From a virus, in the IMG/VR virus record IMGVR_UViG_3300021963_000021, positions 299,944 to 363,943 of that record: DNA of 64,000 nucleotides. One strand, written 5' to 3'. A program made the position numbers and the translations under genes. A model generated the notes under the pieces. It saw only the letters and a list, made by a program, of their open reading frames with translations. It was not told where the DNA came from and searched no databases. Positions 20,525 through 37,153 of the stretch are shown in pieces. How positions within the stretch are numbered: position 1 is the stretch's first letter; every line of letters starts with the position of its first letter.

Positions 20525-20555
20525 GTGAAAAGCCTTTGATATAATAATGTAATAT

Positions 20556-21179: not shown

Positions 21180-21348
21180 TAGCGGTATTTCTCTGCTTGT
21201 TCTCTACAATCAAAACACTGGCATTCTACGCAATCGCAGTCGTCTGTCATACAGCTATGCCCGCAGTGTTTGCCGCACCTACAGGTACAGCCTAGATTCT
21301 TATAAGGTTTATATGAATCGTTGTTATCATTCTGTTCTATCTTTGTCA
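21179..21348 (-). CDS. small cysteine-rich protein (~56 aa, 12 Cys)
   Basis: MTKIEQNDNNDSYKPYKNLGCTCRCGKHCGHSCMTDDCDCVECQCFDCREQAEKYR. Not in the ORF track (<60 aa). Its stop overlaps the downstream ATG (TAATG). Confidence 0.3.
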
Positions 21349-21749
21349 TCTATTGCTCCACCATGTACCCATGCTGTACAGCTACGTGTGCCAGCACATT
21401 TAAAATGTAAAAAATTACAGTATCCTAGATCTGATTTTTCAATAGTGGCCATAGCATCTACGTTTTTGTATTCGCCTTTGATACCTGCTTCGATACAGGC
21501 CCACATCTTGTCACTGACATCGAAAGCAGCGCAGTTGCTACACAGCATGGTCTTTGCTGTCTTTTCGTCTATCTTCCATTCTTTAGCGGCGTCTTTCCAA
21601 TAGCTGCCTGGCTCATCAGGATTGGCAGGTCCATAATGATATTCGTCTATAGCCTTTTGTCTATTCTTTAAGTTAACATCTATGTCGTGTGTGGCGATAG
21701 GACAGCCTTTGTTGGCTGCTTCTACTATGTTGATATACTTGCGATACAT
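21327..21749 (-). CDS. hypothetical Cys-containing protein
   Basis: 140-aa ORF. Confidence 0.3.
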   Translation of the reverse strand: MYRKYINIVEAANKGCPIATHDIDVNLKNRQKAIDEYHYGPANPDEPGSYWKDAAKEWKIDEKTAKTMLCSNCAAFDVSDKMWACIEAGIKGEYKNVDAMATIEKSDLGYCNFLHFKCAGTRSCTAWVHGGAIDDKDRTE

Positions 21750-23371
21750 TAATCCTCACTCCATGTCAACCCTGCGATACAAGGACTGATTGAGTTTGTG
21801 CTCTTTACAGCGATGCTCAACCAACTGCCGGGTGGTATAGTAATACGGTAAGCACTTAGATCAATGTTAATAGTTCCGTTGATACCACAGAAACCTGTGT
21901 AGATAGGTGTGTCTATAGAGTTGTTAAATGTACCCGTAACTGTGCTACGAATTTCATTACAGCGTGTGATGGCGTAGTACTCGTGCTGACCTGAAAAACT
22001 ACTAGGTTCAAAGTAAAGATACACTTCCACAGGGTCTGTGCTCTGTACTGATAAACTTAAACTTTTAACAATGGCTTCTTTGGCATTTAGAATATAGTTG
22101 CCGTTGTTAGCACCAGCATATCCGTTTGTGACCACAGAGTTTTTAATAGTCAACATATGATGTATGTTGTCTTTGTTCAAGCCTGTTTTGCTTGTTGAAT
22201 ATGAACGTGTAAGTTCGTTTAGGTGAATAGTACCTTCAACTGCGGCATAGATACTGGCACCATATACCGTTATATCTGTAGTGTTGGTTGTATTGACAGC
22301 ATTGTAGGTAATCTTAAAACTGGGATTGGCAGTATGCGGTGTTGTATGTTGATTTACATAGTGCTCGCGATGTACATAGACCAGTGTACCACTAGCTTGA
22401 TCTTCTATGGCAAAACTGACGACACCTGCTCCTAGCCAACGCATAGCAATCTGATAGACGTTTAGCTTGGTATGATCCAACAACATACCGCTAGGGTTAG
22501 CGTCAATTGTTCCACTACCATCTAGTTTATCTATGTTCCAATCTTCTTGATAGGTCCAGTTGTCTGTTTGTGCTACACCTGCCTGTACTACAGTAAATGT
22601 AGCAGTAGCATTGCCTGTGCTGGTAAAACTAAAAGTACCCGTCATTGGGCCTAATCTAGGTGCTAGCCATAACATAGCGCCGTCTGTTTGTTGTACTAAC
22701 CAACCACCATAGCCGCCCACACGATCCACAATGTCCGAGACTGTTTGTGCGGCTGTGCCTGCGGTCAGTGCTACTGTATAGGCAACACCGTTTAAGGTGA
22801 TAGTAGCAGTCTGTCCAGCGTTTGGTGCTGTTCCTATTACCAAGGTTAGGATAGTGGCCTTGCCACCTGATGAACGAACAATACCAAAGCGGTTGCCGTT
22901 CCAACCAAAGCCTACTTTGTTTTCTTGATTGGCCAATCCAGCAAACTGTGTACTACCTGCCACTCCTGTAGTAAAGCCTGCGGTCATACGACATACAATA
23001 CCTTGTCCTGGGCGATAACGAACGAAACGTTTACTACGCAGTAAACCATAGCCTCCTGCGTCAGTGCCGCTACGTACTCTAAACATACCGTCAACTGACC
23101 CAGCACTAGATCCTGTACCGTTAGTGTATGTTTGTATGACGTCTGATGTAGCACCATAGATACCGTCTAACTGTATAACTGCTGTGGGACTGATTGCCAG
23201 TGGTTCGCCAAATGCTGATACCTGCCCAGCAACACTTGGACCAGATAACTTAGCAGCCACACGTATCTGTGGTTTGCCTGCGAAATCATACTCCATAGCA
23301 TTGTGTAAATCAGCTAGGTTAGGTTCCCAGGGATGTTCGTAGTTAGTGCTGTTTGGTAATAAGATTGGCAT
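21749..23371 (-). CDS. hypothetical structural protein (possible fibre-associated/adhesin)
   Basis: 540 aa, beta-rich Thr/Gly/Ala-rich. Lies directly downstream of the tail-fibre gene. Confidence 0.35.
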   Translation of the reverse strand: MPILLPNSTNYEHPWEPNLADLHNAMEYDFAGKPQIRVAAKLSGPSVAGQVSAFGEPLAISPTAVIQLDGIYGATSDVIQTYTNGTGSSAGSVDGMFRVRSGTDAGGYGLLRSKRFVRYRPGQGIVCRMTAGFTTGVAGSTQFAGLANQENKVGFGWNGNRFGIVRSSGGKATILTLVIGTAPNAGQTATITLNGVAYTVALTAGTAAQTVSDIVDRVGGYGGWLVQQTDGAMLWLAPRLGPMTGTFSFTSTGNATATFTVVQAGVAQTDNWTYQEDWNIDKLDGSGTIDANPSGMLLDHTKLNVYQIAMRWLGAGVVSFAIEDQASGTLVYVHREHYVNQHTTPHTANPSFKITYNAVNTTNTTDITVYGASIYAAVEGTIHLNELTRSYSTSKTGLNKDNIHHMLTIKNSVVTNGYAGANNGNYILNAKEAIVKSLSLSVQSTDPVEVYLYFEPSSFSGQHEYYAITRCNEIRSTVTGTFNNSIDTPIYTGFCGINGTINIDLSAYRITIPPGSWLSIAVKSTNSISPCIAGLTWSED

Positions 23372-23374
23372 CTG

Positions 23375-23611
23375 TTACGCCCATGGTCGACCAACAAGTA
23401 GTCCACCAACGTTAGGATTGTCTACTACGTTGTTAGTGTCATTGTCACCTGTTTTGTAACGTGTTGGTAGCTGAGTAGCATCAGCAGATGTATCAGCATA
23501 ACGACCGGGCTCTACGACATTCTGTGCGGCCCTGTCATTGCCAGCTAAAGTCAGCTTGGCATCTTGTCTTTGTCTTTTGTAGGTTAGTGTTGAAATGCCG
23601 TTGTCTGCCAT
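23375..23611 (-). CDS. hypothetical protein
   Basis: 78-aa ORF. Confidence 0.3.
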   Translation of the reverse strand: MADNGISTLTYKRQRQDAKLTLAGNDRAAQNVVEPGRYADTSADATQLPTRYKTGDNDTNNVVDNPNVGGLLVGRPWA

Positions 23612-23614
23612 TTC

Positions 23615-23908
23615 TTACTCCTCTGGATATATCGGGAAGCTGTTTCCTCGCAGATCTCTAGGATGTTTTGGACCGTTAACTCCGCCGCCGGCGTCTGTGG
23701 TTACCGCATCAATTGGCAAGACTTTTGGATCAGGTGCTGTGGAATACGGTTTAGTAGACACTAGATCCACTATGTGTTTGAATCTGTTAACATCGCCGTC
23801 GGGCGCAGTTATAGTCACGTCTGCGTTGATACCTTTATCGGCAGGCTCGCTGGCTTCGATGCTGTCGATCAAGTCTAGTAGGTCACGTATTATTTCGGTT
23901 GCTCTCAT
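23615..23908 (-). CDS. hypothetical protein
   Basis: 97-aa ORF. Confidence 0.3.
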   Translation of the reverse strand: MRATEIIRDLLDLIDSIEASEPADKGINADVTITAPDGDVNRFKHIVDLVSTKPYSTAPDPKVLPIDAVTTDAGGGVNGPKHPRDLRGNSFPIYPEE

Positions 23909-23927
23909 AGTGATATTTACCGTTCAA

Positions 23928-26900
23928 TTAATCCCAAGCACCGCCACTTTGTTGCCAAGCACCGTCTGTAAAGATTATTGTACAGAACGCAAGGCTGTCA
24001 ACGAAACTTGCGTTGGCGCTGTTGAATATCCTAAATGGAAATAATAGCCCATCGGTTCCTGTATAACTGCCAATTCTAAAATTAGCCACACCAACAAACA
24101 CAGCATTGGGTGTTATTCCATTTTGCGGAACGAGATACATGATCTGTCCTTCAACGCCATCTGCTAGTGTATAATTACCATCTGTGAGTTTGTTGATAGA
24201 TTTAGTTAGATCTATGGCTGTGTATGCTTGTGTGACTGTAACTACACTGATGTTAGCATTATGAGATCCACTGCCGCCCATATCTGCTGAGTTCAATGTT
24301 CCAATGGTATCACCTACTACGCTGTTTCCGCTAGTACTGATTACTGTGTAAGCAGGCACACCTGATGTAACTATCACAGTAAACGACACTGGACCTAGAG
24401 TAAATGGACCATAGTTTCCATCTATCAGATCGGTCCAACCTCCAGAATCTTGTAATGTAGCGGCTGGTCCAGTATCGTTGCCTGTGCCAGTCTTAGATAC
24501 TGTGCTTTTGACTACAGCACCTGGTAATGTTGTAGTACCGCTTGGTTCAAAACTCCAAGTTTTGTTGTTGGCAACAATTTGAACTTGACCTGCTGAAATT
24601 GCTCCACCGCCAGAACGGATACGAACATCACCGCCAGTGTAGGCGCTACTATATCCGCCGTCAATATGTACGTGGCCGCCTTCGTTGTAACCATTACCGC
24701 CTGCGATGTTTACATAACCACCGTATCCTGATGATACTCCATCAGCATCGCCCGCATAGATCTTAATGTCTCCACCATTGCTATCAGCATCACCTGCCCA
24801 TAGATAAACATCACCACCTTCACCTGCGCCATTGCCGCGTTGTCCTTGGATGATTAAACGTTGTGCGTTTTGATCAGTACCAGGAGTTGGTCCAGTGATA
24901 ATTACTTGTTGACTTGCGTCACCGAACTGTAAGACTTGACCAGATTGACTGCCGCCATTGTGTAAGTTCACTGTCAGAGTTGGGAATGTTACAGAACCGT
25001 TTTGACCAAATACCCAATCATATGACGTAGTAGTATCAGAGTTGTATGTGCGTATTTTAATATACCCCTGATGATTGATATCTACAAATTGAGTATCATC
25101 ACCCAGGATCAAGTCGCCTGTGCTGTCAGTACCTTTACCTGCGGCAATGTGTATGTGCGGAGCATCCTGAGCCAGCGTTGGGTAAATGTCGATATACTGT
25201 CCGTAGTTTCTAAAACTTTGACTAATACTATTGGTATCAACGTGTGGTATTATGCTGATGCGACCATAGGAGAAGTTTTCTTCAGCGGCGCCGTTTCCTC
25301 TAATTTCGTTACCACTGAAACTGATAGTTCCAGTGGCCTCACCTGGTCTGTACAAGGTAGGTATTAGGAATTCAGAGTTGTCAACATCTGCGCCAAGAGC
25401 AGTGATACTAATAGCACCACTGATGTCACTGTCTGTTTTACCAGCATCATCTATAGTAAGATCGCTGGCTGAACTGTTTAACAGTCCTGAGAATGATGCT
25501 GGTGTATAGTCCCAGTCGCCTACAGTAAATGTAGTACCTTCGGTGTTAAACTGTGCTATCAAGGCATGTACCTGTTGTCCAGGATCACCAACTCCGCCGC
25601 CGATGGCCACGTAGCCATTCTTGACCGCGATGTTGCTGCCGCTGCCAGTGTTAGTATAGAAGCCACCGGCAAATGTCCAACTAGTAGTATTGTCTAATAG
25701 ACGTTGCCATGCTACCTGTCCATTTTCTAGATACTTGGCTACAACACAACTAAAGTCAGAGGTATCACCGTTGCCAGCGATGCCTGCTAGGTATAGATAA
25801 TCATCTGGTCCTATCGCTACACTGGTCGCCCAAGTATCACAGTTACCTACTACACGACGACTCCACTGTGCTGTACCCGAAGAATCAAACTTGACTAGAC
25901 TCATTGCGGTGTTAGTGCCGCCTTGACCGTTATCCTTTTGATATTGTCCAACTACATAGATATTACCTGCGCTGTCTATGTCAGCATCTGCTCCGTTACA
26001 GTTATATCCTGTGTCAAACAATACTGCCTTTTGCCAAGCGATAGCGCCGTTGGTGTCATACTTGACTACCAGCATACGGTCTTCTGTGTCACCAGATTCG
26101 CCTAGTTGATCCATGTAACCAATGACTACGACTTCACCGCTGGGTCCAACAGCCATACCATAGGCTTCTTCGTCGGACTGTCCATCTAAGACCCTAGCCC
26201 ATAGTATTGTTCCGTCTTCAAATAACAGTTTAATAACAGTTACTTGATCATCTGTGCCATTATAAGCATAACCAACTATAACCGCGTCTCCGTTACTGCT
26301 TATGTCAATGACACCGTTGGTGCTTGAGTATCCAAAGTCATAGACACTACTCCAATTGATAGTACCGTCAATCAGGCTTAATTGTGTTACGGTCGTTCTA
26401 TCATAGTCTCCTGATATCTTACCAGTGACATAGATCACACCGTTAGAAGAATCTACTGCTACACCCCAGCCATCTGTTGATCCAGCACCTTGATATCTGA
26501 CCTGCCATAACTTTGTGCCTGTGCTGGTAAACTTGGCCACAGAAGTATAGTTGTTGCCGCCCTGTGGATTGTAATGTACAAACAGGGCAATGATATTACC
26601 GTCACTGTCATATTCTATGCTGTTGGCGCTGCCTGGAACATCGTTATTTGTATCATTTGACTCAAATGTTGCTATCCAAACATTTTGATCTGAGGCAGTA
26701 CCGCCTGTTGGATCAGCGTAGGTCATTTCACCTGTTGTGGTATTGTAGTACACAGCCTTAGCGGTATTTTCTACGTCTTCACGAACTGGTTTAACAAACA
26801 AACCAGCACCAGTTGGATCTAAATTCTCACCTGTTGCGTTCAGTGTGATGCTGTTGTCTTCAGCAAAAGTGTATGCGGCTCTTGCGCCAATAGCGATAGC

Positions 26901-27686
26901 GTTCTCACCTTGAGGTGCTTCTGTTTCATTCCAACCTGCTTTAGCACCAATGTACACACCACCTGCTTTACTGTTGTAACCAACATCGTCGTTACCGATA
27001 GCAATAACACCCGCACGATGTGGGTCATGGATACCCTGTCCTAGACTAATGCCAGGCCCTAAATCTGTTGGACCAACATTAACACCTTGATATATTCTTA
27101 GCGTGATATCTTCATTGATGTTTAACTCATAGCGAGTGTCGCCTTCTGCTTCTGGGGTAAAATCAGTGTTGGCTTGTAATCCGTCAATACCATTAACTGA
27201 GAGTCCCACTAAGCCAGGTTCTATTTCTGTAACTGTACCGTTGATTAAAATTTCTGTGACATTTTCTACGCTAGGACCTTGACCGTTACCTACTGATATA
27301 GATCCGCCACCGATTTGACTAGTAGCATTTGAATCTTCTGGGTCTTCTGCTTCATTTTCTTCGCCTGGATTGATAACTTTGGTAGCAACAAACTTGCCGT
27401 TAACGTTGGTAAGTTTAATATTGTCAAGATAGATACTGCCGCCTGCGGTGTAAACGTGACGCCACTGTTTTGTTGGAGATCCTAAATCGTAAGTATTATC
27501 TGCGTCTGGAACAATGTTTGTCTTGGGATCGTAAATGCTGGGTAACAATGACCATATAGTTGAACCGTCACCAATTTTTAATATACCGTTAGTGGTATCG
27601 TAACCTGGTTCACCTTGCGCTAGTACTGGATCTTCTGACGCCCAGTTAGCTGCTGTGTCTCTTCTTAATTTAATCTGCGTTGCCAT
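23928..27686 (-). CDS. large tail fibre protein
   Basis: 1252 aa. N-terminus TQIKLRRDTAANWASEDPVLAQGEPGYDTTNGILKIGDG...YDLGSPTKQWRHVY is the phage tail-fibre N-terminal motif. The middle carries six or more repeats of ...DGTIxW..V.. type (beta-propeller-like). C-terminal Gly-rich repeats (GGDVYLWAGDADSNGGDIKIYAGDADG...). Confidence 0.7.
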   Translation of the reverse strand: MATQIKLRRDTAANWASEDPVLAQGEPGYDTTNGILKIGDGSTIWSLLPSIYDPKTNIVPDADNTYDLGSPTKQWRHVYTAGGSIYLDNIKLTNVNGKFVATKVINPGEENEAEDPEDSNATSQIGGGSISVGNGQGPSVENVTEILINGTVTEIEPGLVGLSVNGIDGLQANTDFTPEAEGDTRYELNINEDITLRIYQGVNVGPTDLGPGISLGQGIHDPHRAGVIAIGNDDVGYNSKAGGVYIGAKAGWNETEAPQGENAIAIGARAAYTFAEDNSITLNATGENLDPTGAGLFVKPVREDVENTAKAVYYNTTTGEMTYADPTGGTASDQNVWIATFESNDTNNDVPGSANSIEYDSDGNIIALFVHYNPQGGNNYTSVAKFTSTGTKLWQVRYQGAGSTDGWGVAVDSSNGVIYVTGKISGDYDRTTVTQLSLIDGTINWSSVYDFGYSSTNGVIDISSNGDAVIVGYAYNGTDDQVTVIKLLFEDGTILWARVLDGQSDEEAYGMAVGPSGEVVVIGYMDQLGESGDTEDRMLVVKYDTNGAIAWQKAVLFDTGYNCNGADADIDSAGNIYVVGQYQKDNGQGGTNTAMSLVKFDSSGTAQWSRRVVGNCDTWATSVAIGPDDYLYLAGIAGNGDTSDFSCVVAKYLENGQVAWQRLLDNTTSWTFAGGFYTNTGSGSNIAVKNGYVAIGGGVGDPGQQVHALIAQFNTEGTTFTVGDWDYTPASFSGLLNSSASDLTIDDAGKTDSDISGAISITALGADVDNSEFLIPTLYRPGEATGTISFSGNEIRGNGAAEENFSYGRISIIPHVDTNSISQSFRNYGQYIDIYPTLAQDAPHIHIAAGKGTDSTGDLILGDDTQFVDINHQGYIKIRTYNSDTTTSYDWVFGQNGSVTFPTLTVNLHNGGSQSGQVLQFGDASQQVIITGPTPGTDQNAQRLIIQGQRGNGAGEGGDVYLWAGDADSNGGDIKIYAGDADGVSSGYGGYVNIAGGNGYNEGGHVHIDGGYSSAYTGGDVRIRSGGGAISAGQVQIVANNKTWSFEPSGTTTLPGAVVKSTVSKTGTGNDTGPAATLQDSGGWTDLIDGNYGPFTLGPVSFTVIVTSGVPAYTVISTSGNSVVGDTIGTLNSADMGGSGSHNANISVVTVTQAYTAIDLTKSINKLTDGNYTLADGVEGQIMYLVPQNGITPNAVFVGVANFRIGSYTGTDGLLFPFRIFNSANASFVDSLAFCTIIFTDGAWQQSGGAWD

Positions 27687-27697
27687 TTTTATATTCC

Positions 27698-27988
27698 TTA
27701 ATATACCGTTGCTGCGTTACCGCCGTCGATAATTGCCATTAACTCGCCATCAACTACAAGGTTTGATTTAAGTCTTATTGATTGTTCTACAATAATTGAA
27801 CTGCTGTCAGTGGTGCTAATAGTACTGCCATTAAATTCAAATGCTCCTAGATTCAAGGCAGTGCCGTCATTAATTCCTAAAGCTACGTACAGTTCGGTAA
27901 AATTGTCATTGATCTTACTAAACGCTAGGCGTAAAGGATCACCTTTACCGCTGTTTGGTGTCGATACATTTATTATTTGTTTTGCCAT
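27698..27988 (-). CDS. hypothetical virion protein
   Basis: 96 aa. The N-terminus (IINVSTPNSGKGDPLRLAFSKINDNFTELY) resembles the fibre/baseplate N-terminal motif. Confidence 0.3.
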   Translation of the reverse strand: MAKQIINVSTPNSGKGDPLRLAFSKINDNFTELYVALGINDGTALNLGAFEFNGSTISTTDSSSIIVEQSIRLKSNLVVDGELMAIIDGGNAATVY

Positions 27989-28212
27989 TATATTCCACCT
28001 AACCTTCTAATTGTGTCAAGCTCGTCCTCTTGCCCCTGTCGTTTCATAAACTCTACGATCGTATCGTAGTCTTTCATTGTGGCCACTCGATTTTGGCTTA
28101 ATTTTGTAACGATTTCTGTGACGTCATGTAGATCCATGTCGTTCTTAATGTCCTCTCTGGCCAATTCCATCAAACGCAGGAATAGGGGAACATCAACTTT
28201 GATTATATCCAT
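27988..28212 (-). CDS. hypothetical protein
   Basis: 74-aa acidic ORF. Confidence 0.3.
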   Translation of the reverse strand: MDIIKVDVPLFLRLMELAREDIKNDMDLHDVTEIVTKLSQNRVATMKDYDTIVEFMKRQGQEDELDTIRRLGGI

Positions 28213-28257
28213 AGCGGCAGCACCTTAAATAGCTTATTAGATATTTATCGGACAAAC

Positions 28258-29436
28258 ATGATTAACAAAGAACCATTTCAGAGACTGATTGATCGGCTAA
28301 AAGCTGAAGGAAAATATAGGGTTTTTAACGACATCCTGCGAGAAGCCGGAGACTATCCTTACGCTATTTGGTACGGTCCCTACAACATTAAAAAGATCGT
28401 AAATTGGTGTAGCAACGACTATCTAGGCATGGGACAGCACAAAGTTGTTCTAGATGCCATGCACACTGCGTTAGATCAAACAGGAGCAGGATCGGGCGGC
28501 ACACGCAATATCGCAGGCACTAGCCACTATCACGTTGCTCTAGAGCACGAGCTTGCTACTTTACATAAAAAGAGCGGAGCACTGTTGTTCAGTTCTGCCT
28601 ACGTTGCCAACGAGTGGACATTGATCGCCTTGGCTAAAATCATTCCCGACATAGAGTTTGTTTCAGATTCTAAGAATCATGCTAGCCTCATAGAGGGTAT
28701 GCGCCATAGCCGGGCGCCTAAACACATCTTCCGACACAATGATCTAGCAGATCTCAAAGAGAAACTAGAAACCGTCAAGGGCAAGGCCTGTGTCGTACTA
28801 GAATCTGTTTACTCTATGGACGGGGATATATCTAAACTACCAGAGATCATCAAGCTGTGTAGATTATATGCCGCTATTATCTACGTAGATGAAGTACACG
28901 CTGTAGGACTCTACGGAGAGCAAGGAGGCGGCATCATAGAAAAGCTAGAACTTGAGAACGATGTCGACATCATCAACGGCACATTGGGCAAGGCCTACGG
29001 AGTACAGGGTGGCTACATCGCTGCTGACAAATTGATCATCGATGCTGTGCGCAGTATCGCCAGCGGATTTATCTTTACAACTTCTATGAGCCCGGTGACC
29101 TGTGCGGGTGCGCTGGCTGCTGTGAAATATCTAAAACAACACGAAGAACTGCGTGTCAAGCATCAAGAGCGAGCAGCTAAATTAAAGCAGTTATTCAAAG
29201 ACAATGGCATTCCTGTTATGGATTCTGAAACGCATATCGTGCCAGTTATGGTAGGCGATGCTTTCAAATGTAAGAAGATATCAGACGAGCTGTTGAACGA
29301 GCATAACATTTATGTACAGCCTATCAACTATCCCACAGTACCAGTGGGCACTGAACGATTAAGGTTCGCTCCTACACCTTATCACACAGATGCTATGATG
29401 GAAGATCTTGTAGCTAAACTAAAGACTCTGTTATAA
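28258..29436 (+). CDS. hemA: 5-aminolevulinate synthase (ALAS, alpha-oxoamine synthase family)
   Basis: 392 aa. YRVFNDILREAGDYP...VNWCSNDYLGMGQH are hallmark ALAS N-terminal motifs. GAGSGGTRNIAGT is present. The PLP-lysine motif is GTLGKAYGVQGGYIA. Confidence 0.8.
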   Translation: MINKEPFQRLIDRLKAEGKYRVFNDILREAGDYPYAIWYGPYNIKKIVNWCSNDYLGMGQHKVVLDAMHTALDQTGAGSGGTRNIAGTSHYHVALEHELATLHKKSGALLFSSAYVANEWTLIALAKIIPDIEFVSDSKNHASLIEGMRHSRAPKHIFRHNDLADLKEKLETVKGKACVVLESVYSMDGDISKLPEIIKLCRLYAAIIYVDEVHAVGLYGEQGGGIIEKLELENDVDIINGTLGKAYGVQGGYIAADKLIIDAVRSIASGFIFTTSMSPVTCAGALAAVKYLKQHEELRVKHQERAAKLKQLFKDNGIPVMDSETHIVPVMVGDAFKCKKISDELLNEHNIYVQPINYPTVPVGTERLRFAPTPYHTDAMMEDLVAKLKTLL

Positions 29437-30234
29437 TCCTGGAGCTCTGCTGTAGCAGATAGGATACCAAGACATGCGTTCTTGGAATATTTCTGCCGAG
29501 TCTATCAGTTCAAGGTCTTTAAAAACTTCTATAGATTTCTCGCAGAATTCTTCATCTAGGCTCACAGAAAGATTAGGTAACAGATGTGTCTTTAACCAAA
29601 GGTAGTGCTGCTCAGGACCTGGATGGTGATCCCAGATAGTCTTGCTTTGATCTCTGAGAATGCCTATCATTCCTAGCATAGGATTCAGTTGATATATCTT
29701 TAACTGTTTGCCTTTGTATCCTAGATCATCTGTAAACTTCTGTATAGGATACAGCCAGTCTTGAGTTATGCTGTCGTAGAATCGTAGGTCATCGAAGTGT
29801 TTGTATTCGTCTTTGATATCATAGTGACTGGTAACTATGAGCTTACAGCCTGTGTTCTTTAGCAGAGCCATAGCCATATTGATAAAGTTTAGGCTGTGTA
29901 AGCAATAGCTCTTTTCACGCCAACTTTCTGTTACAAACTTACTTTCCCAAGGATTGGTATGTATGTTGCCTGAACAACGCCAGCGTGTGTTAGGCATGAT
30001 ATCTTCTGCGTGTTGATCGTATCTGTGAAAGTTAGTCCACTGGACAATAACTGTGTCTGTTGAACTAATTTGCTTTGACAGCACACATTCTGAAATACGT
30101 TCAGCTATGGCTCGATTACCTGTGCCTCGTATAGCCCAATTTTCAAATTCGTTGTAGCTACGACCTATCATGTCAGCCCAAGTGGGCCAATTCCAATCAG
30201 TGTAGCTACAACCAAATGTAAAAAGTCTACTCAT
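29431..30234 (-). CDS. hypothetical protein, possible SGNH/GDSL-like hydrolase
   Basis: 267 aa. N-terminal [10 protein letters not shown] resembles GDS(L) block I with Cys in place of Asp. Weak assignment. Confidence 0.3.
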
Positions 30235-30878
30235 GGACGTTTGTCAATGACTTGATCTACTAGACCGTAATCTAATGCTTCCTGAGCACTCATGAAATAG
30301 TCACGTTCCATGTCTGCGGCAAACTGATCATAGGTCTTGCCCTTGCTGTTATGTTTGACATAGATGTTGGTAAGGTTCTCTTTCATCTTCTGAATCTCAC
30401 GAGCTTGAATCTGGATGTCAGTGGCCTGTCCACGAGCGCCGCCACTGGGCTGATGAATCATATGTCGAGCATTGGGCAGCATAAAACGTTTGCCTGCTGC
30501 CCCTGCCTGTGCTAGCAGACTGCCCATACTACAGGCCTGGCCCATTACAAACGTAGCCACGTCACATTTGATAAACTGCATTGTATCATAGATGCTCATG
30601 CCTGCGGTAACTACACCGCCCGGACTGTTGATAAACAGTGAAATATCTTTGTCTGGGTTTTCACTTTCAAGGAACAGTAGTTGTGCCACAACCAAATTGG
30701 CCATGTGGTCTTCAACTTCTCCGTTGAGCATAACGATTCTCTCTTTGAGCAAACGGCTATAGATATCATAAGCACGTTCGCCACGTGAGCTGGACTCAAC
30801 TACCATTGGTACTAACATTGTTTTATTCTCCTTGGATGATTTAACATTTATAATAGCAGACTTGTCTTTGTAGGTCAA
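30231..30878 (-). CDS. clpP: ATP-dependent Clp protease proteolytic subunit
   Basis: 215 aa. [10 protein letters not shown] (catalytic Ser), MIHQPSGG (His) and the typical ClpP core. TTG start per ORF track. TATAAAT-like box in the upstream divergent region. Confidence 0.85.
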
Positions 30879-30969
30879 GTGTTATTATCTATGTCAAAAA
30901 CACTTGCTCGAAGGTTAAAATGACTGTACACTTGTTTAGTTAAATACTCGTATTAAGAACGGTAAAATC

Positions 30970-31485
30970 ATGTCAGATACACTATTACTAAACGCAGACG
31001 CTCAACCAGTGAGCCTATTGCCATTGAGCACAATCAATTGGCAGGATGCCATACGTTATCTCGTTCTAGACAAGGCACGAGTATTAGAGTGGCACGAAGA
31101 TTGGGTCGTTAGATCTGCTCGCTGGGAAACTCGTGTGCCTGCTGTTCTGATGTTAAAAGAATACTACAAAAAGAAAGGCGTTAGCCGTTTGAGCAAACGC
31201 AATGTATTCTTGCGAGACAACTACAAATGCCAGTACTGCGGCACAGATGTCAACGAGGATTCAGCTACACTAGATCATGTGCTGCCAATTTCTCTTGGCG
31301 GTAAAAGCACATGGCTGAACTTGTCTACAGCCTGTAAACCCTGTAACTATCGCAAGGCCAATCATACCAAAATGAAACCTGTGCGTTTGCCTTACAAGCC
31401 AGATTATTTTGAATTGGCTGAAAAACGCAGATCTCGCGGGTTCCATATCGGGCATCCAAGCTGGAAAGATTATCTAGGTAGTTAA
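30970..31485 (+). CDS. HNH endonuclease
   Basis: 171 aa. CQYCG...DHVLPISLGGKSTWLNLSTACKPCNYRK is the HNH zinc-finger nuclease motif. Confidence 0.8.
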   Translation: MSDTLLLNADAQPVSLLPLSTINWQDAIRYLVLDKARVLEWHEDWVVRSARWETRVPAVLMLKEYYKKKGVSRLSKRNVFLRDNYKCQYCGTDVNEDSATLDHVLPISLGGKSTWLNLSTACKPCNYRKANHTKMKPVRLPYKPDYFELAEKRRSRGFHIGHPSWKDYLGS

Positions 31486-31494
31486 TCAAATCTC

Positions 31495-31523
31495 TTGACA
31501 TTAAATCTACTCATGCGTATAAT
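31495..31523 (+). promoter_or_regulatory. sigma70-consensus promoter (TTGACA-17-TATAAT)
   Basis: TTGACAttaaatctactcatgcgTATAAT. The ORF-track start at 31495 includes this promoter. The true ATG is at ~31531. Confidence 0.7.
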
Positions 31524-31530
31524 TAAACGC

Positions 31531-32214
31531 ATGAGTACACAATTCCATTCTGCTTTACAGAGCATACTTGCGATGCCCTATTTTAAAAATGAACACGCCC
31601 GTTCTGGCGGAGCGGTGTTTGGTCACGAAGAAGCTGTGGCTGAAAAGATCAAGGCCGCAGGCTTTACAGAAGTAGATAAGAAACAATATCCTAAACTCAC
31701 AAAAGGTCTTCTTAAAAAATGGGCCAACAGCGGAAATGATGTTGATCTTAGGAAAGCCACAGAGGGATTGCCCGAAGGAACTTATATCTTACAGCCAGCT
31801 GGCACACAGGGATTTCCAGATGTGCTGGTCAAAGATTGGGGAGATCGTTTTGTCTCAGTAGAATGTAAGAGCGGCATGAATGGGTTATGCCCTATGTGGA
31901 ACGATAATATTCCTAAACCTAATTCCGTATATGTATTGAGTTCTGGCATACGTAATGAAACAACAGTGTTTATGGGCAAGGATGTTATTAGTCCAGAAGA
32001 ACAACAGCTAATGGACGAACAAGAAGCCGCTATCGCTAAATTGGTAAAAGAATACAACGATAAATTAAAGGCCATAGACAAGTTTAATCGTGGATGGATA
32101 CAGAAGAGTCGTAAGCAACATTTTCAAGGTGGCGGCAATCTAAAGACTAATTACTTTACTCACAGTTCTAGAACAGAATGTGAAAAGAATGCGTTAGAAT
32201 TTGCCCAGCAATGA
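31531..32214 (+). CDS. PD-(D/E)xK nuclease, candidate restriction endonuclease
   Basis: ~228 aa. GFPDVLVKDWGDRFVSVECKSG gives the PD...(E)xK catalytic core. Stop overlaps the MTase ATG (ATGA), the classic R-M gene pairing. Confidence 0.4.
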   Translation: MSTQFHSALQSILAMPYFKNEHARSGGAVFGHEEAVAEKIKAAGFTEVDKKQYPKLTKGLLKKWANSGNDVDLRKATEGLPEGTYILQPAGTQGFPDVLVKDWGDRFVSVECKSGMNGLCPMWNDNIPKPNSVYVLSSGIRNETTVFMGKDVISPEEQQLMDEQEAAIAKLVKEYNDKLKAIDKFNRGWIQKSRKQHFQGGGNLKTNYFTHSSRTECEKNALEFAQQ

Positions 32215-33170
32215 CCAAACCCTTAAAGCCAGTTAACCTACATCTCAGCTCTGTGACTATCACAGATGTAGAGAATCACAAGAACGTCACAACCAAAGAG
32301 CTACAGCGAGACCTCAAGAACCTAAACAAGTTTGATGCTCTCAGCAATGCCAACAACTTTGCTGGCAATCCATTCTTGTATCATTTCCAATTTAAAAATC
32401 TGTTGAAGTGTCGCAGGCAAGATGGCAAAACTATCTACGACATCTATAATGATTCCGCAGAGTGGGACAAGCTGATAGAGCAGACAAAGCTGCGTAATAG
32501 AGGCGGACGAACTGCTGCTGGCAATGTCTTTGAGTGCTTTCGTATCAACCTAGGCTCTGTTGTGATGTTCAAAGCAACCACAGCCAAATACCTATACAAA
32601 AAGTATAAGGCCAAAGCTGTGTTAGATCCCACAGCAGGGTGGGGTGGTCGTATGCTAGGTGCTTGGTCGTTGGGCATAGATTACACAGGCATTGATACTA
32701 ACGTTGAAATGATTCCTGCCTATGATGCTATGATGGCATTCTTAGATGCTGAACTAGAATCAGTCAATGGCATAGACAGCAATCTGTTTAGAATGGACAG
32801 AGACTTTGATCTAAAGATGATTTGGCAAAGTTGCTTAGATGTAGACTTTAGCCAAATCAACTATGACTTTGTATTAACTAGCCCTCCTTACATCAACTTA
32901 GAACTCTACGAACACATGGAGCCTTGGGAAACGGACAAGGCATTCTACGAACTGTTCTTCATTCCGCTTTGGCAAAAGTGCGTAGACAACATCCAAAAAG
33001 GTGGGCATGTAGCATTTAACATCTCGCCCAAAATGTATGCGGACGCACTCAAATACGGACTCACACCCTGCGACGAAGAAGAAGACCTATTACAACAAAT
33101 GGGTCAAAAAGTAGATGCTCTTAAAAAGGGCAAAAAGAAACAGGATAAGATCTACGTTTGGCATTGTTGA
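32211..33170 (+). CDS. DNA methyltransferase (N6-adenine/N4-cytosine, gamma-class order)
   Basis: 319 aa. Motif I-like DPTAGWGGRMLGA precedes motif IV TSPPY (DPPY-type). Confidence 0.75.
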   Translation: MTKPLKPVNLHLSSVTITDVENHKNVTTKELQRDLKNLNKFDALSNANNFAGNPFLYHFQFKNLLKCRRQDGKTIYDIYNDSAEWDKLIEQTKLRNRGGRTAAGNVFECFRINLGSVVMFKATTAKYLYKKYKAKAVLDPTAGWGGRMLGAWSLGIDYTGIDTNVEMIPAYDAMMAFLDAELESVNGIDSNLFRMDRDFDLKMIWQSCLDVDFSQINYDFVLTSPPYINLELYEHMEPWETDKAFYELFFIPLWQKCVDNIQKGGHVAFNISPKMYADALKYGLTPCDEEEDLLQQMGQKVDALKKGKKKQDKIYVWHC

Positions 33171-33172
33171 TC

Positions 33173-33201
33173 TTGACTTATAACTAAACCTTTAGTAAAC
33201 T
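33173..33201 (+). promoter_or_regulatory. weak sigma70-like promoter (TTGACT-17-TAAACT)
   Basis: Same variant pair as the promoter at 53559. Confidence 0.3.
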
Positions 33202-33269
33202 GTAGTTACTTGTTAATCAAGTAATCACAGTCGTTTGTTAATCAAACGCATTAACTATAGGAAATTGTT

Positions 33270-34469
33270 ATGTATCATAAAAAGATAACCGATAAGTTCA
33301 GTACGGACTTGTTTGATGTTTTGGGTCCAAAAGAAAATCGTGTTCCTTGGAACTCACTTAGTCTCACAGAGCAAACAGCTCGAATCAATAGAATCCCCGA
33401 ATATGTTAATACTCGTTCGTTAGGTTCGCATCCAACGTTTGTAGACATGCTGATTTTCTGTTTTCAGAAATTAGTTAACATGGGAGATGAAAACCCGTTA
33501 AGGGGTATTGACCTACCTGAGTTTAGTTCACTCGGTGAAGCGGCAGAACAAATGAAAATGCCCGCTATGAACTACGATCCTACAAACTTACACGACATTG
33601 TAATTTTAGTTAAGAACGCTGCCAAGCAACGAGATATTTTCCTGCGTCACATCTTTGCTGATATTGTTTTCCGTTTCAATCCAGGACTTGTATTTCCAGG
33701 TATTGGCCGTATGAATTCAAAAGGTCAGTTATTTGTAAACGATGCTCAACATCGAACACTGGCATGTATGATTCTTGGCATTGAACAAGTGCCATTGAGC
33801 TTTATTCGTTCCGACGACGAGTATTGGGATGTTGCTCAATACGCTGCTATTAATATTCACAGTCTAAGTGCTAGCCCATTTGATCATTATCGTATTCGTG
33901 TACAACGAGCAAATGCCAGCGAAGAAGCAAATATGCCTGTAGAGAAAGAAGATATTATCTGTAGAGAAATGGATACACTGTTCAACGAACTTGAAGTTGT
34001 TGTAGTTGAAAAGAAAGACACAGTGGGCTCTAATTCTAAAGTGCTTACAGGCATTGGTAACATGGTCAAGTATCGTAAAGACTATTCTAAAGATGCCTTT
34101 GAGCGAGCAGTTACAATCAATGCTATTCTGTTTCCAACTTGTGTGTTTCAAACTGCTAATAGTTGGGGACTCATGGAGTTCTTAGAACATCAAGATAAGA
34201 AAGTAGACAAGAAAGAGTTTGATTACAAACTTCGTAATGCTTTACGCAAGGCTTGGCAAAAACCAAACCAAGGCAATCGTTTACACAAAGATATCAAAGA
34301 CTGTTACAAAGATCAAACAGACTCCGAAGCAAACAATAGTCGTGTCCCAGAGCCTGTGATCATCGCACACGGTATTTGGCAAGTGTGTAAAAAGTACGAG
34401 CCAGAAGGCAATTGGATTGAACCCCCGTGGCCTGCTAAAATGCAAAAGTTTACTATGGACTTGGTATGA
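33270..34469 (+). CDS. DGQHR/ParB-Srx-fold domain protein (DndB-like)
   Basis: 399 aa. LFVNDAQHRTLA resembles the DGQHR motif of DndB/DpdB-like ParB-fold proteins. Adjacent to the MTase. Confidence 0.4.
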   Translation: MYHKKITDKFSTDLFDVLGPKENRVPWNSLSLTEQTARINRIPEYVNTRSLGSHPTFVDMLIFCFQKLVNMGDENPLRGIDLPEFSSLGEAAEQMKMPAMNYDPTNLHDIVILVKNAAKQRDIFLRHIFADIVFRFNPGLVFPGIGRMNSKGQLFVNDAQHRTLACMILGIEQVPLSFIRSDDEYWDVAQYAAINIHSLSASPFDHYRIRVQRANASEEANMPVEKEDIICREMDTLFNELEVVVVEKKDTVGSNSKVLTGIGNMVKYRKDYSKDAFERAVTINAILFPTCVFQTANSWGLMEFLEHQDKKVDKKEFDYKLRNALRKAWQKPNQGNRLHKDIKDCYKDQTDSEANNSRVPEPVIIAHGIWQVCKKYEPEGNWIEPPWPAKMQKFTMDLV

Positions 34470-34942
34470 AGAACTGGACTATTGTAAACGAGTCTATCAA
34501 CGCTCGTGAACCATACACTAGTCCAGACGAGGGCACATACTATAATAGAGAACTGTTTAAACATTTTTGTAGGAACAGAGACTATAAGTATGTGGCTATA
34601 TTTGGTTACTATAAAATCAAATACAATTGGTCTGAAGAACAAGCTCAAAGCATGTATGACAAAAGTCCGGACGGATGGACGGATGGACTAGGTGTATATC
34701 GATTGTTTGACTGGGGCAAAGGCGAAAACAAACTTAAAATTGGTGATGATTGGGAATGGCACGAACCTCAGTTGGATCATATTATTCCTAGATCAAAAGG
34801 CGGGCAAGACACTCCTGAAAACTTTCAAGTGTTGCCTGCGATCATCAATAGGATTTTGAGTAACCTTACAGACGAGTCAGCACCCGCAGTGTTGCCTATT
34901 GTTTTAGCACAATTTTCAGCGGTTGACAATCTAGTAAAGTGA
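34466..34942 (+). CDS. HNH endonuclease
   Basis: 158 aa. EWHEPQLDHIIPRSKGGQDTPENFQVL is the HNH core. Confidence 0.7.
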   Translation: MKNWTIVNESINAREPYTSPDEGTYYNRELFKHFCRNRDYKYVAIFGYYKIKYNWSEEQAQSMYDKSPDGWTDGLGVYRLFDWGKGENKLKIGDDWEWHEPQLDHIIPRSKGGQDTPENFQVLPAIINRILSNLTDESAPAVLPIVLAQFSAVDNLVK

Positions 34943-34951
34943 GCATATAAT
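34923..34951 (+). promoter_or_regulatory. sigma70-consensus promoter inside the 3' end of the HNH gene
   Basis: TTGACAatctagtaaagtgagcaTATAAT. Shares the GAGCATATAAT extended -10 with other promoters in the window. Confidence 0.6.
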
Positions 34952-34982
34952 ATACAAATAATAATAACAACAGGAGAAGTAA

Positions 34983-35156
34983 ATGGATACTATTTTGGTG
35001 CTATGGGCGTTAGCTTGGGGCAACAATGCCTACAACGAACTAACACAACCTCCTCCTGTTGTTAAAGTTGAAAAGCTAGAAGTGGATCCAAAATTGTATT
35101 ATCCAGATCTAGCAGAAGACATGTGGGACCCAAATTGGATTAATAAGAAAGGTTAA
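34983..35156 (+). CDS. hypothetical small protein (57 aa)
   Basis: RBS AGGAGAAGTAAATG. MDTILVLWALAWGNNAYNELTQPPP... Confidence 0.35.
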   Translation: MDTILVLWALAWGNNAYNELTQPPPVVKVEKLEVDPKLYYPDLAEDMWDPNWINKKG

Positions 35157-35157
35157 G

Positions 35158-36474
35158 ATGCGTACACAGCCCGAAAAGATCATACAGCAACTAGAAGCAG
35201 ACAACAGCCGTTTGGCCAAGGAAGCTATTTTAGAACAGGCAATGACCGAAGGGTTAGACGAGTTCTTTGAAGGGCTTCGAATGTGCTACGACACACTCTA
35301 TACCTTTGGAGTCAAGCAGGTTCCTATCAGCAAAGCCGACGGCCAAGGTCTGCCTTGGGATGCTTTCAAACAACTAGCAGAAGCATTGTATAAAAGAGAC
35401 CTCACAGGTCACGATGCTCGTGATGCTATTCAGTTAGCTATGGATGTTGCTACCAAAGAGCAATGGAACGATTTCTATCGACGCATCCTTATCAAAGACA
35501 TGCGAGCAGGCTTTAGCGAAAAAACAATTAACACCGTAGTTAAGAAAACAGGCAAAACTCAATACAAGGTTCCAGTGTTTGAGTGTATGCTCGCACACGA
35601 CGGAGCCAATCATGAAAAGAAAATTACGGGTGTTAAACTGCTCGAACCAAAGTTGGACGGAGTACGTTGTATCACAGTCGTCGATTACGAAAATAGAACA
35701 GTCGTTCAATACACACGCAATGGCAAAGTATTGGAGAACTTCGGTCACATTACTAGTGGCCTTCTTGAGCATATTGATGCTCTTGGTAGATCTTATGTAT
35801 TGGATGGTGAAGTAGTTTCTAACAGCTTCCAAGATCTAATGAAGCAGGTACATCGTAAGAGTGATGTACAGGCACAAGACGCACGACTGATGCTGTTTGA
35901 TATCATTCCATTAGTAGAGTTCAAACAGGGTGTCAGTGTCATGGGCCAACGTCGTCGTAGCAACTTCCTTAGGACATTTAAGGCTGTGTTTGACGAGATT
36001 GGTTCTATCGATATCATTCCGCAGAAAGAAGTCAATCTAGACGAATTTGTGGGAGATCTCGAATACAAAGAATACAACAAAGAAATGGTTAACGCAGGCT
36101 TCGAAGGGATCATGATCAAAGATCCTGAAGCCAAGTACGTGGCCAAAAGAGATACTGCTTGGCTGAAGCAGAAACCATTTATTGAAGTCAGCCTTACTGT
36201 TAAAGACATCGAAGAAGGCACAGGTCGTAACGAAGGACGCCTTGGTGCTTTAATATGCGAAGGAGAAGACGATGGAAAGTTTATTATGGTTAATGTTGGT
36301 AGTGGCTTCAGTGATGCCGATCGTGATTCTTTATATTCTAGCAAGGATCTCGTACTAGGACAGGTAGTAGAAGTACGTGCTGATGCTATCACACAGAATC
36401 AAGACGGTACCTACAGCCTGCGTTTTCCGAGATTCTTGAAGTTCCGTGGATTTACCAAAGGAGAAAAGATTTGA
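35158..36474 (+). CDS. ATP-dependent DNA ligase
   Basis: 438 aa. Motif I KLDGVRCI, motif III/IV and OB-fold region (EGIMIKDP motif IV, motif V WLKQK). Confidence 0.85.
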   Translation: MRTQPEKIIQQLEADNSRLAKEAILEQAMTEGLDEFFEGLRMCYDTLYTFGVKQVPISKADGQGLPWDAFKQLAEALYKRDLTGHDARDAIQLAMDVATKEQWNDFYRRILIKDMRAGFSEKTINTVVKKTGKTQYKVPVFECMLAHDGANHEKKITGVKLLEPKLDGVRCITVVDYENRTVVQYTRNGKVLENFGHITSGLLEHIDALGRSYVLDGEVVSNSFQDLMKQVHRKSDVQAQDARLMLFDIIPLVEFKQGVSVMGQRRRSNFLRTFKAVFDEIGSIDIIPQKEVNLDEFVGDLEYKEYNKEMVNAGFEGIMIKDPEAKYVAKRDTAWLKQKPFIEVSLTVKDIEEGTGRNEGRLGALICEGEDDGKFIMVNVGSGFSDADRDSLYSSKDLVLGQVVEVRADAITQNQDGTYSLRFPRFLKFRGFTKGEKI

Positions 36475-36938
36475 AAGCACAGACACCTGCTGAAGGCATC
36501 CTAATACATAAAGATTATGGAGATGCCAAACAATACATTATCACGTGTGAATGTTGTGACGAAGGTCACAGCCATCATATTTGGGTAGAAGCCGAAGACG
36601 TTGGAGTTACTGTAACTACCTATGTAGATGTAAAGACCGACTATTGGTCAGAAAAAGTAGAACAGAGATATGATATCGACAATGAAATCTATCAGAACAT
36701 CCACTGGTATTTTGTTGGACTGTTTAATGATTGGCATCGTCGTTTTAAATTGATATGGCAGATACTGACTAAAGGTTATATCCAATATCAAGCTTCACTG
36801 ATCATGAGCCAACAGCAGGCTCTTAACTACGCCGAAACTCTTAAGAAAGCTGTAACTGATGTAGAAAAGTTTCGTGCCAGCAAAGATCCTAAAAACAAAG
36901 AAGCAGTCAAGGCCGCTCAGGAAGGAGATTGCGTATGA
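36471..36938 (+). CDS. hypothetical protein
   Basis: 155-aa ORF. CECCDEGHSHH near the N-terminus. Confidence 0.3.
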   Translation: MKAQTPAEGILIHKDYGDAKQYIITCECCDEGHSHHIWVEAEDVGVTVTTYVDVKTDYWSEKVEQRYDIDNEIYQNIHWYFVGLFNDWHRRFKLIWQILTKGYIQYQASLIMSQQQALNYAETLKKAVTDVEKFRASKDPKNKEAVKAAQEGDCV

Positions 36939-37153
36939 ATTCTGTAGAGATGGCAAACGATTTAATCAATCGTGCTAAAAATCTTAAATTGTTTGAAGTG
37001 GAACGAGACATCAGCGATAGTAGTATTTTGTTTGATGGCCCGGTTCCGTTTGATCTACGTGCTAATCAAACAACTGCTTGGTTCAAAGTCTATGCTGTTA
37101 CTTTGGAAGAAGCAGAAGCACAAGTCGATAACTGGTTAAGCTGGAGGATATGA
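36929..37153 (+). CDS. hypothetical protein
   Basis: 74-aa ORF. Confidence 0.3.
   Translation: MRMNSVEMANDLINRAKNLKLFEVERDISDSSILFDGPVPFDLRANQTTAWFKVYAVTLEEAEAQVDNWLSWRI

Follow-up and report, generated by a model that had tools for sequence, protein, structure and literature searches.

A predicted viral 5-aminolevulinate synthase gene in the genome backbone of an uncultured aquatic phage

The synthesis of 5-aminolevulinate (ALA) is the committed step in the formation of haem, chlorophyll and B12, and the most tightly regulated one. Phage genes for ALA synthase (ALAS) have been described before, and Chen et al. 2020 (bioRxiv 10.1101/2020.02.13.942896) included ALAS when naming the genes for porphyrin metabolism in huge freshwater phages, with ho1 and pcyX also present in ALAS-bearing huge phages. 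Wegner et al. 2024 (Nat Commun 15:8783; PMC11480375) named the gene valaS, surveyed marine and freshwater phage contigs, and found that viral AlaS sequences cluster apart from bacterial ones and that valaS occurs in a cassette with hemO and pcyA/X, in a broken cassette, or as an individual gene. One viral AlaS, CB_2, was shown there to be enzymatically active and to rescue the ALA auxotroph E. coli ST18, while its K250A mutant was inactive. In Supplementary Dataset 1 of the same paper the contigs from Lake Grosse Fuchskuhle measure 179-374 kb, nine of the ten lying at 319-374 kb, and these jumbo-phage contigs have a GC content of 38-42% and carry HemO, bilin reductase and AlaS, not as a cassette. 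Viral alaS genes and transcripts have since been tracked in an estuary as a recognised auxiliary metabolic gene (AMG) in a 2026 study (PMC13390420).

We analysed a gene of this kind in a 64-kb window, by which we mean the whole 64,000-nucleotide stretch of viral DNA under study. An earlier note on this DNA had treated the phage-encoded ALAS as new and had proposed complementation as a check; as set out above, such genes were reported by Chen et al. 2020 and a homologue was carried through complementation by Wegner et al. 2024, and the window valaS is a further member of the described vAlaS class. Our addition is a modest one, a further valaS of the jumbo-phage form whose genomic surroundings are well resolved. 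The features discussed below are collected in Table 1.

Table 1. Coordinates in the window of valaS, its neighbours and the AAA+/VWA pair
Feature	Coordinates	Strand	Remarks
valaS, phage-encoded 5-aminolevulinate synthase (ALAS), predicted	28258..29436	+	392 aa; PLP lysine K245
Divergent intergenic region between orf74 (-) and valaS (+)	28213..28257	.	45 bp; holds the conserved element
CCTTAAATA...RTATTTATYGG element	28225..28251		Just 5' of the valaS ATG; putative regulatory site
orf74, small conserved gene divergent from valaS	27988..28212	-	74 aa; without Pfam match
orf267, convergent gene	29431..30234	-	3' ends of orf267 and valaS overlap by 6 bp
ClpP proteolytic subunit, phage-encoded	30231..30878	-	NF001368 326.9 bits (cutoff 249); PF00574 1.8e-83
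MoxR/midasin-like ATPase	54825..55913		First ORF of the supposed CobS/CobT pair
DUF2201 protein	56027..57232		DUF2201_N (putative metallopeptidase, 140 bits) and DUF2201 (VWA-like, 55 bits)

Identity of the reading frame and its haem-feedback residues

The valaS reading frame runs from ATG to TAA with exactly the boundaries given in the earlier note, and a MINKEPF N-terminus common to dozens of valaS relatives supports the start codon. All of the motifs quoted in that note are present: YRVFNDILREAGDYP occupies residues 20-34 of the window ALAS, WCSNDYLGM residues 50-58, and TLGKAYGVQGGYIA, which contains the PLP lysine, residues 242-255. While these motifs had been called diagnostic of ALAS, the NDYLG and PLP-lysine blocks are also found in BioF and Kbl, and what tells the protein apart from those enzymes is the combination of profile scores, succinyl-CoA-binding residues and a tree, not the motifs alone.

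Against the NCBIfam model TIGR01821 the protein scored 574.8 bits (E=8.7e-173), 236 bits above the cutoff of 338.55; Pfam returned the generic Aminotran_1_2 fold alone. Its matches in the PDB include 7x98 (1.2e-131), the R. capsulatus enzyme 2bwn (9.5e-123) and human ALAS2 (1.1e-116). The HMMER alignment with R. capsulatus ALAS (RcALAS, 2BWN) covers 384 aligned columns at 52% identity, and 19 of the 20 functional residues of RcALAS are identical in the window protein. These are the positions that bind PLP, glycine and succinyl-CoA according to the structural literature (the 2BWN structure paper); the identical ones include R21, N54, T83, N85, I86, S137, H142, K156 and E185, as well as S189, D214, H217, T245, K248, T278, T365 and R374 (RcALAS numbering), and S277 is replaced conservatively by Thr. 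RcALAS K248, H142, D214, H217, T245 and S189 correspond to K245, H141, D211, H214, T242 and S186 of the window ALAS, and K248 is also named by Wegner et al. (PMC11480375). The functional positions are invariant across 61 viral-clade ALAS sequences. The reading frame is real, and we put at roughly 0.9 the probability that its enzymatic identity is ALAS and that it qualifies as an AMG.

Both of the haem-ligand residues that have been implicated in the feedback inactivation of some alphaproteobacterial ALAS are absent. The equivalent of RcALAS His342 is Lys in the window protein, and the chain ends at about RcALAS position 397, some 9 residues short of the RcALAS C-terminus, which leaves no equivalent of Cys400; the protein has neither a C-terminal Cys nor a Cys-Pro motif. 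Given that both ligands are lacking, the window ALAS is probably insensitive to haem feedback. The 61 viral-clade sequences never have His at the 342 position (36 Lys, 19 Arg, 5 Leu and 1 Val), and a Cys near the C-terminus is kept in some viral relatives. Wegner et al. likewise noted that many viral AlaS, though not all, are without His342 and/or Cys400, and suggested feedback insensitivity (PMC11480375). Since just 5 of 18 sampled cellular or eukaryotic ALAS sequences have His342, however, its absence is on its own weak evidence, and no proof, of a phage-specific loss of regulation.

Proposed role in the infected cell

We propose that valaS encodes a functional viral ALAS (vAlaS), which would give its carrier, an aquatic phage known without cultivation and closely related to phages with ~360-kb genomes, a single-enzyme Shemin (C4) entry into tetrapyrrole synthesis. 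During infection vAlaS would supply ALA independently of the rate-limiting, tightly regulated step of the host, and with this ALA the infected cell would keep up or raise its levels of haem and other tetrapyrroles. A phage with its own, probably unregulated ALA route might in this way sustain respiration and tetrapyrrole-dependent enzymes as host expression shuts down. Wegner et al. 2024 (PMC11480375) have already argued for the significance of such a route and put it to the test. For the window allele, its activity, the timing of its expression and its benefit to the phage are predictions from sequence, and the physiological benefit in particular is conjectural.

An active vAlaS might, on the other hand, mainly feed a dispersed phage bilin pathway rather than simply top up host haem. 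The ALA would then pass through host haem synthesis to a phage haem oxygenase and a phage ferredoxin-dependent bilin reductase, the genes for which would lie elsewhere in the ~360-kb genome. The Lake Grosse Fuchskuhle contigs, with their HemO, bilin reductase and AlaS genes outside any cassette (PMC11480375), lend this proposal some weight, as does the similarity of three of their AlaS sequences to the window ALAS (83%, 79% and 77% identity over N-terminal stretches of 167-168 residues); the ho1 and pcyX genes of ALAS-bearing huge phages (Chen et al. 2020) point the same way. Yet neither hemO nor pcyA was found in the 64-kb window when Pfam was run on all sizeable ORFs not already annotated, and the precomputed Pfam results of matching contigs placed no Heme_oxygenase or Fe_bilin_red match within 10 kb of valaS in close relatives. 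A tblastn probe with cyanobacterial HO1, of limited sensitivity for divergent viral HemO, detected no haem oxygenase across 172 loci (the window and 171 others). The sole weak match of that probe, in locus L053, is by Pfam not a haem oxygenase. We regard a mainly bilin-directed vAlaS as possible, at odds well short of even, and retain as the preferred reading an enzyme that would supply ALA for haem and other tetrapyrroles.

Cyclising enzymes of secondary metabolism, which form the C5N unit (2-amino-3-hydroxycyclopent-2-enone), are close homologues of ALAS and would pass the ALAS profile models too, but the C5N pathway requires a partner acyl-CoA ligase and an amide synthetase, and no AMP-binding or comparable family appears in any Pfam result for the window. 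Furthermore, a member of the same viral clade rescued haem auxotrophy (PMC11480375), and we consider it most improbable that the window protein is an ALAS-like enzyme of this kind and stands outside the haem pathway.

Phage setting, conservation and the question of the host

By PHROG, Pfam and NCBIfam, the neighbours of valaS in the window include RNR subunits, a tail spike, a virion structural protein and HNH endonucleases, together with a 1252-aa tail fibre with an Mtd_N domain, an ATP-dependent DNA ligase, an SPFH protein and ClpP. Three tRNAs are also present. The best cultured matches of the virion protein are in Synechococcus phages of 180-214 kb, at ~39% identity, and it also matches an uncultured 485-kb phage. 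Reading TAG as a sense codon merged or improved no real gene in the window, and an exact-protein look-up for the ORF at 42065..43294 gave no record.

Relatives of the window ALAS are encoded on 458 IMG/VR viral contigs, the best at 93% identity, and copies in protein databases are 94-97% identical, with a 94%-identical copy residing on a 364,181-bp contig (JGI 3300050209 Ga0502766_0000032). Among GenBank phage genomes, megablast with the locus gave no match and tblastn with the window ALAS gave BioF/Kbl-like matches alone, at no more than 37% identity, several of which sit in contaminated or transducing records. Thus, the GenBank phage collection contains no deposited or cultured phage genome with valaS.

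A rise in GC from 0.42 to 0.50 at ~46 kb of the window (44% overall), and the occurrence of relatives at 65-69% identity in bacterial MAG bins, could be taken to mean that valaS is bacterial DNA, whether a host fragment, a mis-assembly or part of a chimeric contig, and not phage-encoded. However, phage genes lie on either side of valaS, and the exact window protein is found with the same neighbours on three independently assembled contigs at 99.6-100% identity; one independent contig matches window 24946..32411 at 100% identity, and a second matches 21974..39436 at 99.6%. Given that an independent contig covering 44825..62407 spans the GC rise, that rise is a real feature of the genome and not the mark of a chimera. 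The GC of valaS (0.45) and its GC3 (0.46) are like those of neighbour genes. The relatives in MAG bins are confined to seven short contigs, all of which fall within the viral clade although their bins belong to unrelated phyla (Flavobacteriales, Crocinitomicaceae, Polynucleobacter, Vibrio, Alphaproteobacteria, and two contigs from Rhodobacteraceae Water_Bin34). The phage HNH gene is present on three of the seven (L092-L094), and L093 has the virion-protein gene as well. These contigs are most likely mis-binned phage, as Wegner et al. likewise judged for a 'Marinovum' record (PMC11480375). With synteny extending across 93 viral loci, a bacterial source for the DNA is highly improbable, and the description of valaS as a host-like metabolic gene in a phage genome is borne out by its neighbours, by the IMG/VR contigs and by that synteny.

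Across the 93 related loci the genes that recur beside valaS are those for HNH (73), DNA ligase (58), ClpP (56), the 74-aa ORF (45, where it stands directly 5' of valaS) and the virion protein (39), and valaS lies at the junction between leftward structural genes and a rightward HNH-and-ligase block. Because this neighbourhood recurs, we regard valaS as an old, fixed, vertically inherited backbone gene of a broad phage lineage. The dN/dS values of 0.031 and 0.043 against the two closest homologues (L084 and L001, respectively), obtained at a dS of 1.1-1.4 that is near saturation, indicate strong purifying selection. This picture of a long-standing, strongly constrained backbone gene (dN/dS ~0.03, synteny in 93 loci) is what the locus adds to the published accounts. 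The convergent orf267, for which PHROGs, Pfam and NCBIfam gave no match, adjoins valaS in just 18 of the 93 loci and is therefore not tightly linked to it.

The element upstream of valaS, CCTTAAATA...RTATTTATYGG, is kept in six phages with ALAS proteins of 82-100% identity, even though their synonymous sites are saturated. With a single occurrence in the window, it does not qualify as a recurring phage promoter. A scan for sigma-70-type promoters found 8 where 8.1 were expected by chance, and the one terminator signal noted was a weak terminator-like hairpin at 29467..29485. In most of the loci that carry ClpP its gene lies 1.2-4.1 kb downstream of valaS. Mitochondrial ALAS is under Clp-dependent control, and by analogy the placement of valaS beside a phage ClpP could, speculatively, indicate phage-run proteolytic control of haem synthesis.

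The earlier note had read two ORFs in the right-hand part of the window as a CobS/CobT-like MoxR-VWA pair, and as a further sign of tetrapyrrole manipulation by the phage. Both ORFs exist and the description of their architecture is fair, but neither matches a CobS or CobT model, and no chelatase signature was seen. The first ORF scores 29.9 bits with AAA_3, 30.0 with AAA_5 and 25.6 with AAA, falls below the cutoff of bpMoxR and gave no CobS model match in Pfam or NCBIfam; in the PDB it comes closest to midasin AAA modules, and a weak match to the 'porphyrin biosynthesis' PHROG 249 (2e-7) compares with 6e-100 for the generic ATPase PHROG 1297. The second ORF matched no CobT model in Pfam and had no NCBIfam or PDB match. 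As neither ORF belongs to the cobaltochelatase family by Pfam and NCBIfam, the pair is no argument for a manipulation of tetrapyrroles by the phage, and should not be counted as tetrapyrrole metabolism.

The presence of ALAS had also been taken as a hint of an alphaproteobacterial host, a hint that we judge weak. In a neighbour-joining tree of 81 sequences (100 bootstraps), for which E. coli BioF and Salmonella Kbl from annotated records served as the root, the viral clade, including the short MAG contigs, has a bootstrap of 83, and the viral clade together with sequences from Francisella and Neisseriaceae MAGs a bootstrap of 100. The window ALAS is 72-97% identical to viral sequences and, within a cellular comparison set of species-representative bacterial genomes, about 55-60% at most to those of alphaproteobacterial chromosomes, which speaks against the hint. 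The viral clade has as its sister group two chromosomal ALAS genes, which lie on a 500-kb and a 433-kb contig from the MAGs labelled Francisella and Neisseriaceae. Both loci, whose GC of 41-43% is similar to that of the phage, have the same non-phage neighbours, namely an APH-family kinase, a TolC-like outer-membrane protein and an ABC-2 permease, and between the two MAGs these neighbours share 46-64% identity.

Given this sister group, and given that the published host predictions for alaS phages include an alpha- as well as a gammaproteobacterium (PMC11480375), ALAS serves poorly for inferring the host and is no reliable pointer to an alphaproteobacterial one, and we would caution against using the gene as such an indicator. 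The same relationship might mean that phages took the Shemin pathway into classically C5 lineages, or that such a lineage was the donor and possibly the host, a suggestion that we consider doubtful.

Sister enzymes and comparison with described systems

BioF and Kbl have the alpha-oxoamine synthase fold and PLP chemistry of the window ALAS, to which they are 33-35% identical, and they differ from it in their acyl-CoA-binding residues. Given that the fold, NDYLG and the PLP-lysine block are common property, and that every match in GenBank phage records was BioF- or Kbl-like, one might suppose that the reading frame encodes another alpha-oxoamine synthase (BioF/AONS, Kbl or serine palmitoyltransferase, SPT) mislabelled as ALAS. 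The NCBIfam models for these enzymes all score below their curated cutoffs, however, namely BioF at 329.5 bits (cutoff 426.45; E 1e-98), Kbl at 316.2 (cutoff 460; E 1e-94) and the SPT models at 195-251 (cutoffs 500-670). The best Kbl/BioF entries in the PDB (~1e-61 to 1e-57) lie ~200 bits or more below those of ALAS. At T83, N85 and K156 the window protein has the residues typical of ALAS, whereas E. coli BioF and Salmonella Kbl have V/S, F/H and R/L at these positions, and in the tree described above the window protein falls inside an ALAS group that is monophyletic against BioF/Kbl, the outgroup, with a bootstrap of 100/100. Profile scores, PDB scores, residues and tree thus effectively refute a BioF, Kbl or SPT identity, and the preference of the earlier note for ALAS, including the phylogenetic placement that it had proposed as a check, holds.

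The closest described system is the vAlaS of Wegner et al. 2024, with which the window ALAS shares both enzyme family and viral clade. Identity to CB_2 is 58% over 224 aligned residues, in a partial alignment with residues 1-230 of CB_2 as reconstructed from the supplementary alignment (PMC11480375). The vAlaS of the Lake Grosse Fuchskuhle jumbo phages have the MINKEPF-type N-terminus of the window protein, and the genome size class is alike (364 kb for a relative of the window lineage, 320-374 kb for the published jumbo phages). The likeness to vAlaS extends to the catalytic residues, all of which are kept, and to the haem site of His342/Cys400, which is absent. In its arrangement the window valaS, as known from 64 kb, fits the published category of an individual valaS with no cassette. 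Besides the limited identity to CB_2, the one tested enzyme, there are further differences: the GC of the window is slightly above that of the published jumbo phages (44% against 38-42%), and four JGI sample/scaffold identifiers of the window lineage are absent from the supplementary files of PMC11480375.

Compared with the R. capsulatus enzyme (HemA/AlaS, 2BWN), the similarity runs over the full length and includes the residues for PLP, glycine and succinyl-CoA. Alphaproteobacterial ALAS differs in that the window ALAS is phage-encoded, lies in a separate clade, and has Lys for His342 and no equivalent of Cys400. CobS/CobT are analogous to the AAA+/VWA pair of the window in combining a MoxR ATPase with a VWA partner, but the pair stands outside that family.

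The AMGs of cyanophages and pelagiphages (ho1/hemO, pebS, pcyA/pcyX and cobS), none of which was found in the 64-kb window by Pfam or NCBIfam, follow the same logic as valaS, that of phage genes acting on host tetrapyrrole metabolism. While those genes act downstream, in haem breakdown, bilin reduction and cobalt chelation, valaS would act at the committed first step.

Cellular relatives of the viral ALAS and probable phage contigs in bacterial bins

The viral ALAS clade as a whole has as its sister group, with a bootstrap of 100, the chromosomal ALAS of two MAG contigs, one labelled Francisella (L096) and one labelled Neisseriaceae (L097), which share 59-61% identity with the window protein. 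Both loci have a GC of 41-43% and non-phage flanks in common, consisting of an APH kinase, a TolC-like OEP and an ABC-2 permease; compared from one contig to the other, these flanking proteins share 46-64% identity. L096 has a patatin gene as an additional neighbour. These data suggest that ALAS was transferred, in either direction, between phages and a lineage that, going by the MAG labels, would be non-alphaproteobacterial.

The viral clade itself includes the ALAS of seven GTDB species-representative MAG contigs of 1.3-43 kb (L090-L095 and L103), whose bins are labelled Flavobacteriales, Crocinitomicaceae, Polynucleobacter, Vibrio, Alphaproteobacteria and Rhodobacteraceae Water_Bin34. The phage HNH gene is present on three of them (L092-L094), and L093 also carries the virion-protein gene. 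The seven contigs probably belong to phages and were mis-binned with bacteria, and as such would probably be a source of false calls of ALAS outside Alphaproteobacteria. No ALAS was found among the deposited phage genomes of the INPHARED GenBank phage collection (August 2025), in which the alpha-oxoamine synthase matches were BioF or Kbl only; several of these sit in phage records whose sequence is evidently a bacterial contig or a transduced bio locus, such as Salmonella WGS contigs and Escherichia phage DN1.

Features of the window and ALAS genes of the two MAG contigs
Feature	Location	Strand	Remarks
Class II aldolase/adducin-family protein	window 2764..3426	-	
Divergent Fe/Mn superoxide-dismutase-like protein	window 3407..3958	-	99.6 bits, far under cutoff of 348
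Non-specific DNA/RNA endonuclease	window 19709..20524	-	
Tail fibre, 1252 aa	window 23928..27686	-	Mtd_N domain, PF18454
True ClpP proteolytic subunit	window 30231..30878	-	NF001368
SPFH/Band-7 protein	window 38045..38854	+	
tRNA, anticodon CTA	window 39586..39660	+	labelled tRNA-Pyl by ARAGORN
Putative metal transporter, TerC/YjbE-family	window 43529..44203	-	203 bits, cutoff 135
TilS N-terminal catalytic domain gene, 210 aa	window 49980..50612	+	TIGR02432
tRNA with anticodon CAT and tRNA-Leu(TAA)	window 50621..50784	+	immediately downstream of, and adjoining, TilS-like gene
MoxR/midasin-type AAA+ ATPase and DUF2201 pair	window 54825..57232	+	ATPase in PHROG 1297
ALAS, Francisella-labelled MAG	L096 3001..4194		CALTVE010000002.1, 500 kb
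ALAS, Neisseriaceae-labelled MAG	L097 3001..4188		JBBPJF010000002.1, 433 kb

A change of composition in the window

At about 46 kb the GC rises sharply, from 0.42 in window positions 1..46000 to 0.50 in about 46000..64000, and GC3 rises from about 0.34-0.46 to about 0.59-0.60, the latter range being that of the MoxR and DUF2201 genes. An assembly chimera was rejected as the cause, since one independent contig covers the junction. The region beyond the shift could be a mosaic module that came from another source, or alternatively a differently expressed region dense in very small genes.

The pair of genes in this region that the earlier note described as CobS/CobT-like proved instead to encode a MoxR/midasin-type AAA+ ATPase and a DUF2201_N/DUF2201 protein, the latter a putative metallopeptidase with a VWA-like domain. 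This partner is a member of PHROG 1314, whose label 'HNH endonuclease' looks doubtful here, since the search revealed no HNH domain in the protein.

tRNAs and decoding

The 210-aa TilS-like protein scores 105 bits against TIGR02432 (cutoff 93.6). The neighbouring CAT-anticodon 'tRNA-Met' may be a tRNA-Ile2 that is converted by the phage TilS to read AUA, in which case gene and tRNA would constitute a phage-encoded decoding module.

The codon read by the CTA-anticodon tRNA is amber, and TAG stops are strongly avoided in the window, ending none of 26 long ORFs and only 2 of 61 independently called genes (TAA 37, TGA 22); unlike TAG stops, the TAG trinucleotide overall is not depleted. When TAG was read as sense across the window, no real gene was lengthened or fused. 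For the window genes, the tRNA and the scarcity of TAG look like carriage of a suppressor tRNA with amber avoidance, not demonstrated recoding.

Host-like genes, tail fibre and ClpP

Five further genes in the table are host-like, namely those of the class II aldolase/adducin-family protein, the superoxide-dismutase-like protein, the TerC/YjbE-family putative metal transporter, the SPFH/Band-7 protein and the non-specific DNA/RNA endonuclease. The superoxide-dismutase-like protein is without the WEHAY motif, and its gene lies between the RNR genes.

The tail fibre is hypervariable among phages that are near-identical elsewhere (the window and the related loci L084 and L085), with identities of 28-87% in relatives that reach 91-95% in ALAS, ClpP and HNH. 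The replacement fibres differ in length (1388, 1531 and 1644 aa), and one has collagen repeats. Such variability is in keeping with a rapid exchange of host-recognition modules; the window showed neither a reverse transcriptase nor a DGR.

The window ClpP scores 326.9 bits against NF001368 (cutoff 249), and its reading as a ClpP-like prohead protease was rejected (105 bits against 120). ClpP is carried by 56 of the 93 related phage loci, in most of these at 1.2-4.1 kb from valaS, the phage ALAS gene, and no ClpX was seen within the window. A functional link between ClpP and valaS in this phage is speculation, for which the known parallel is mitochondrial ALAS, a Clp client.
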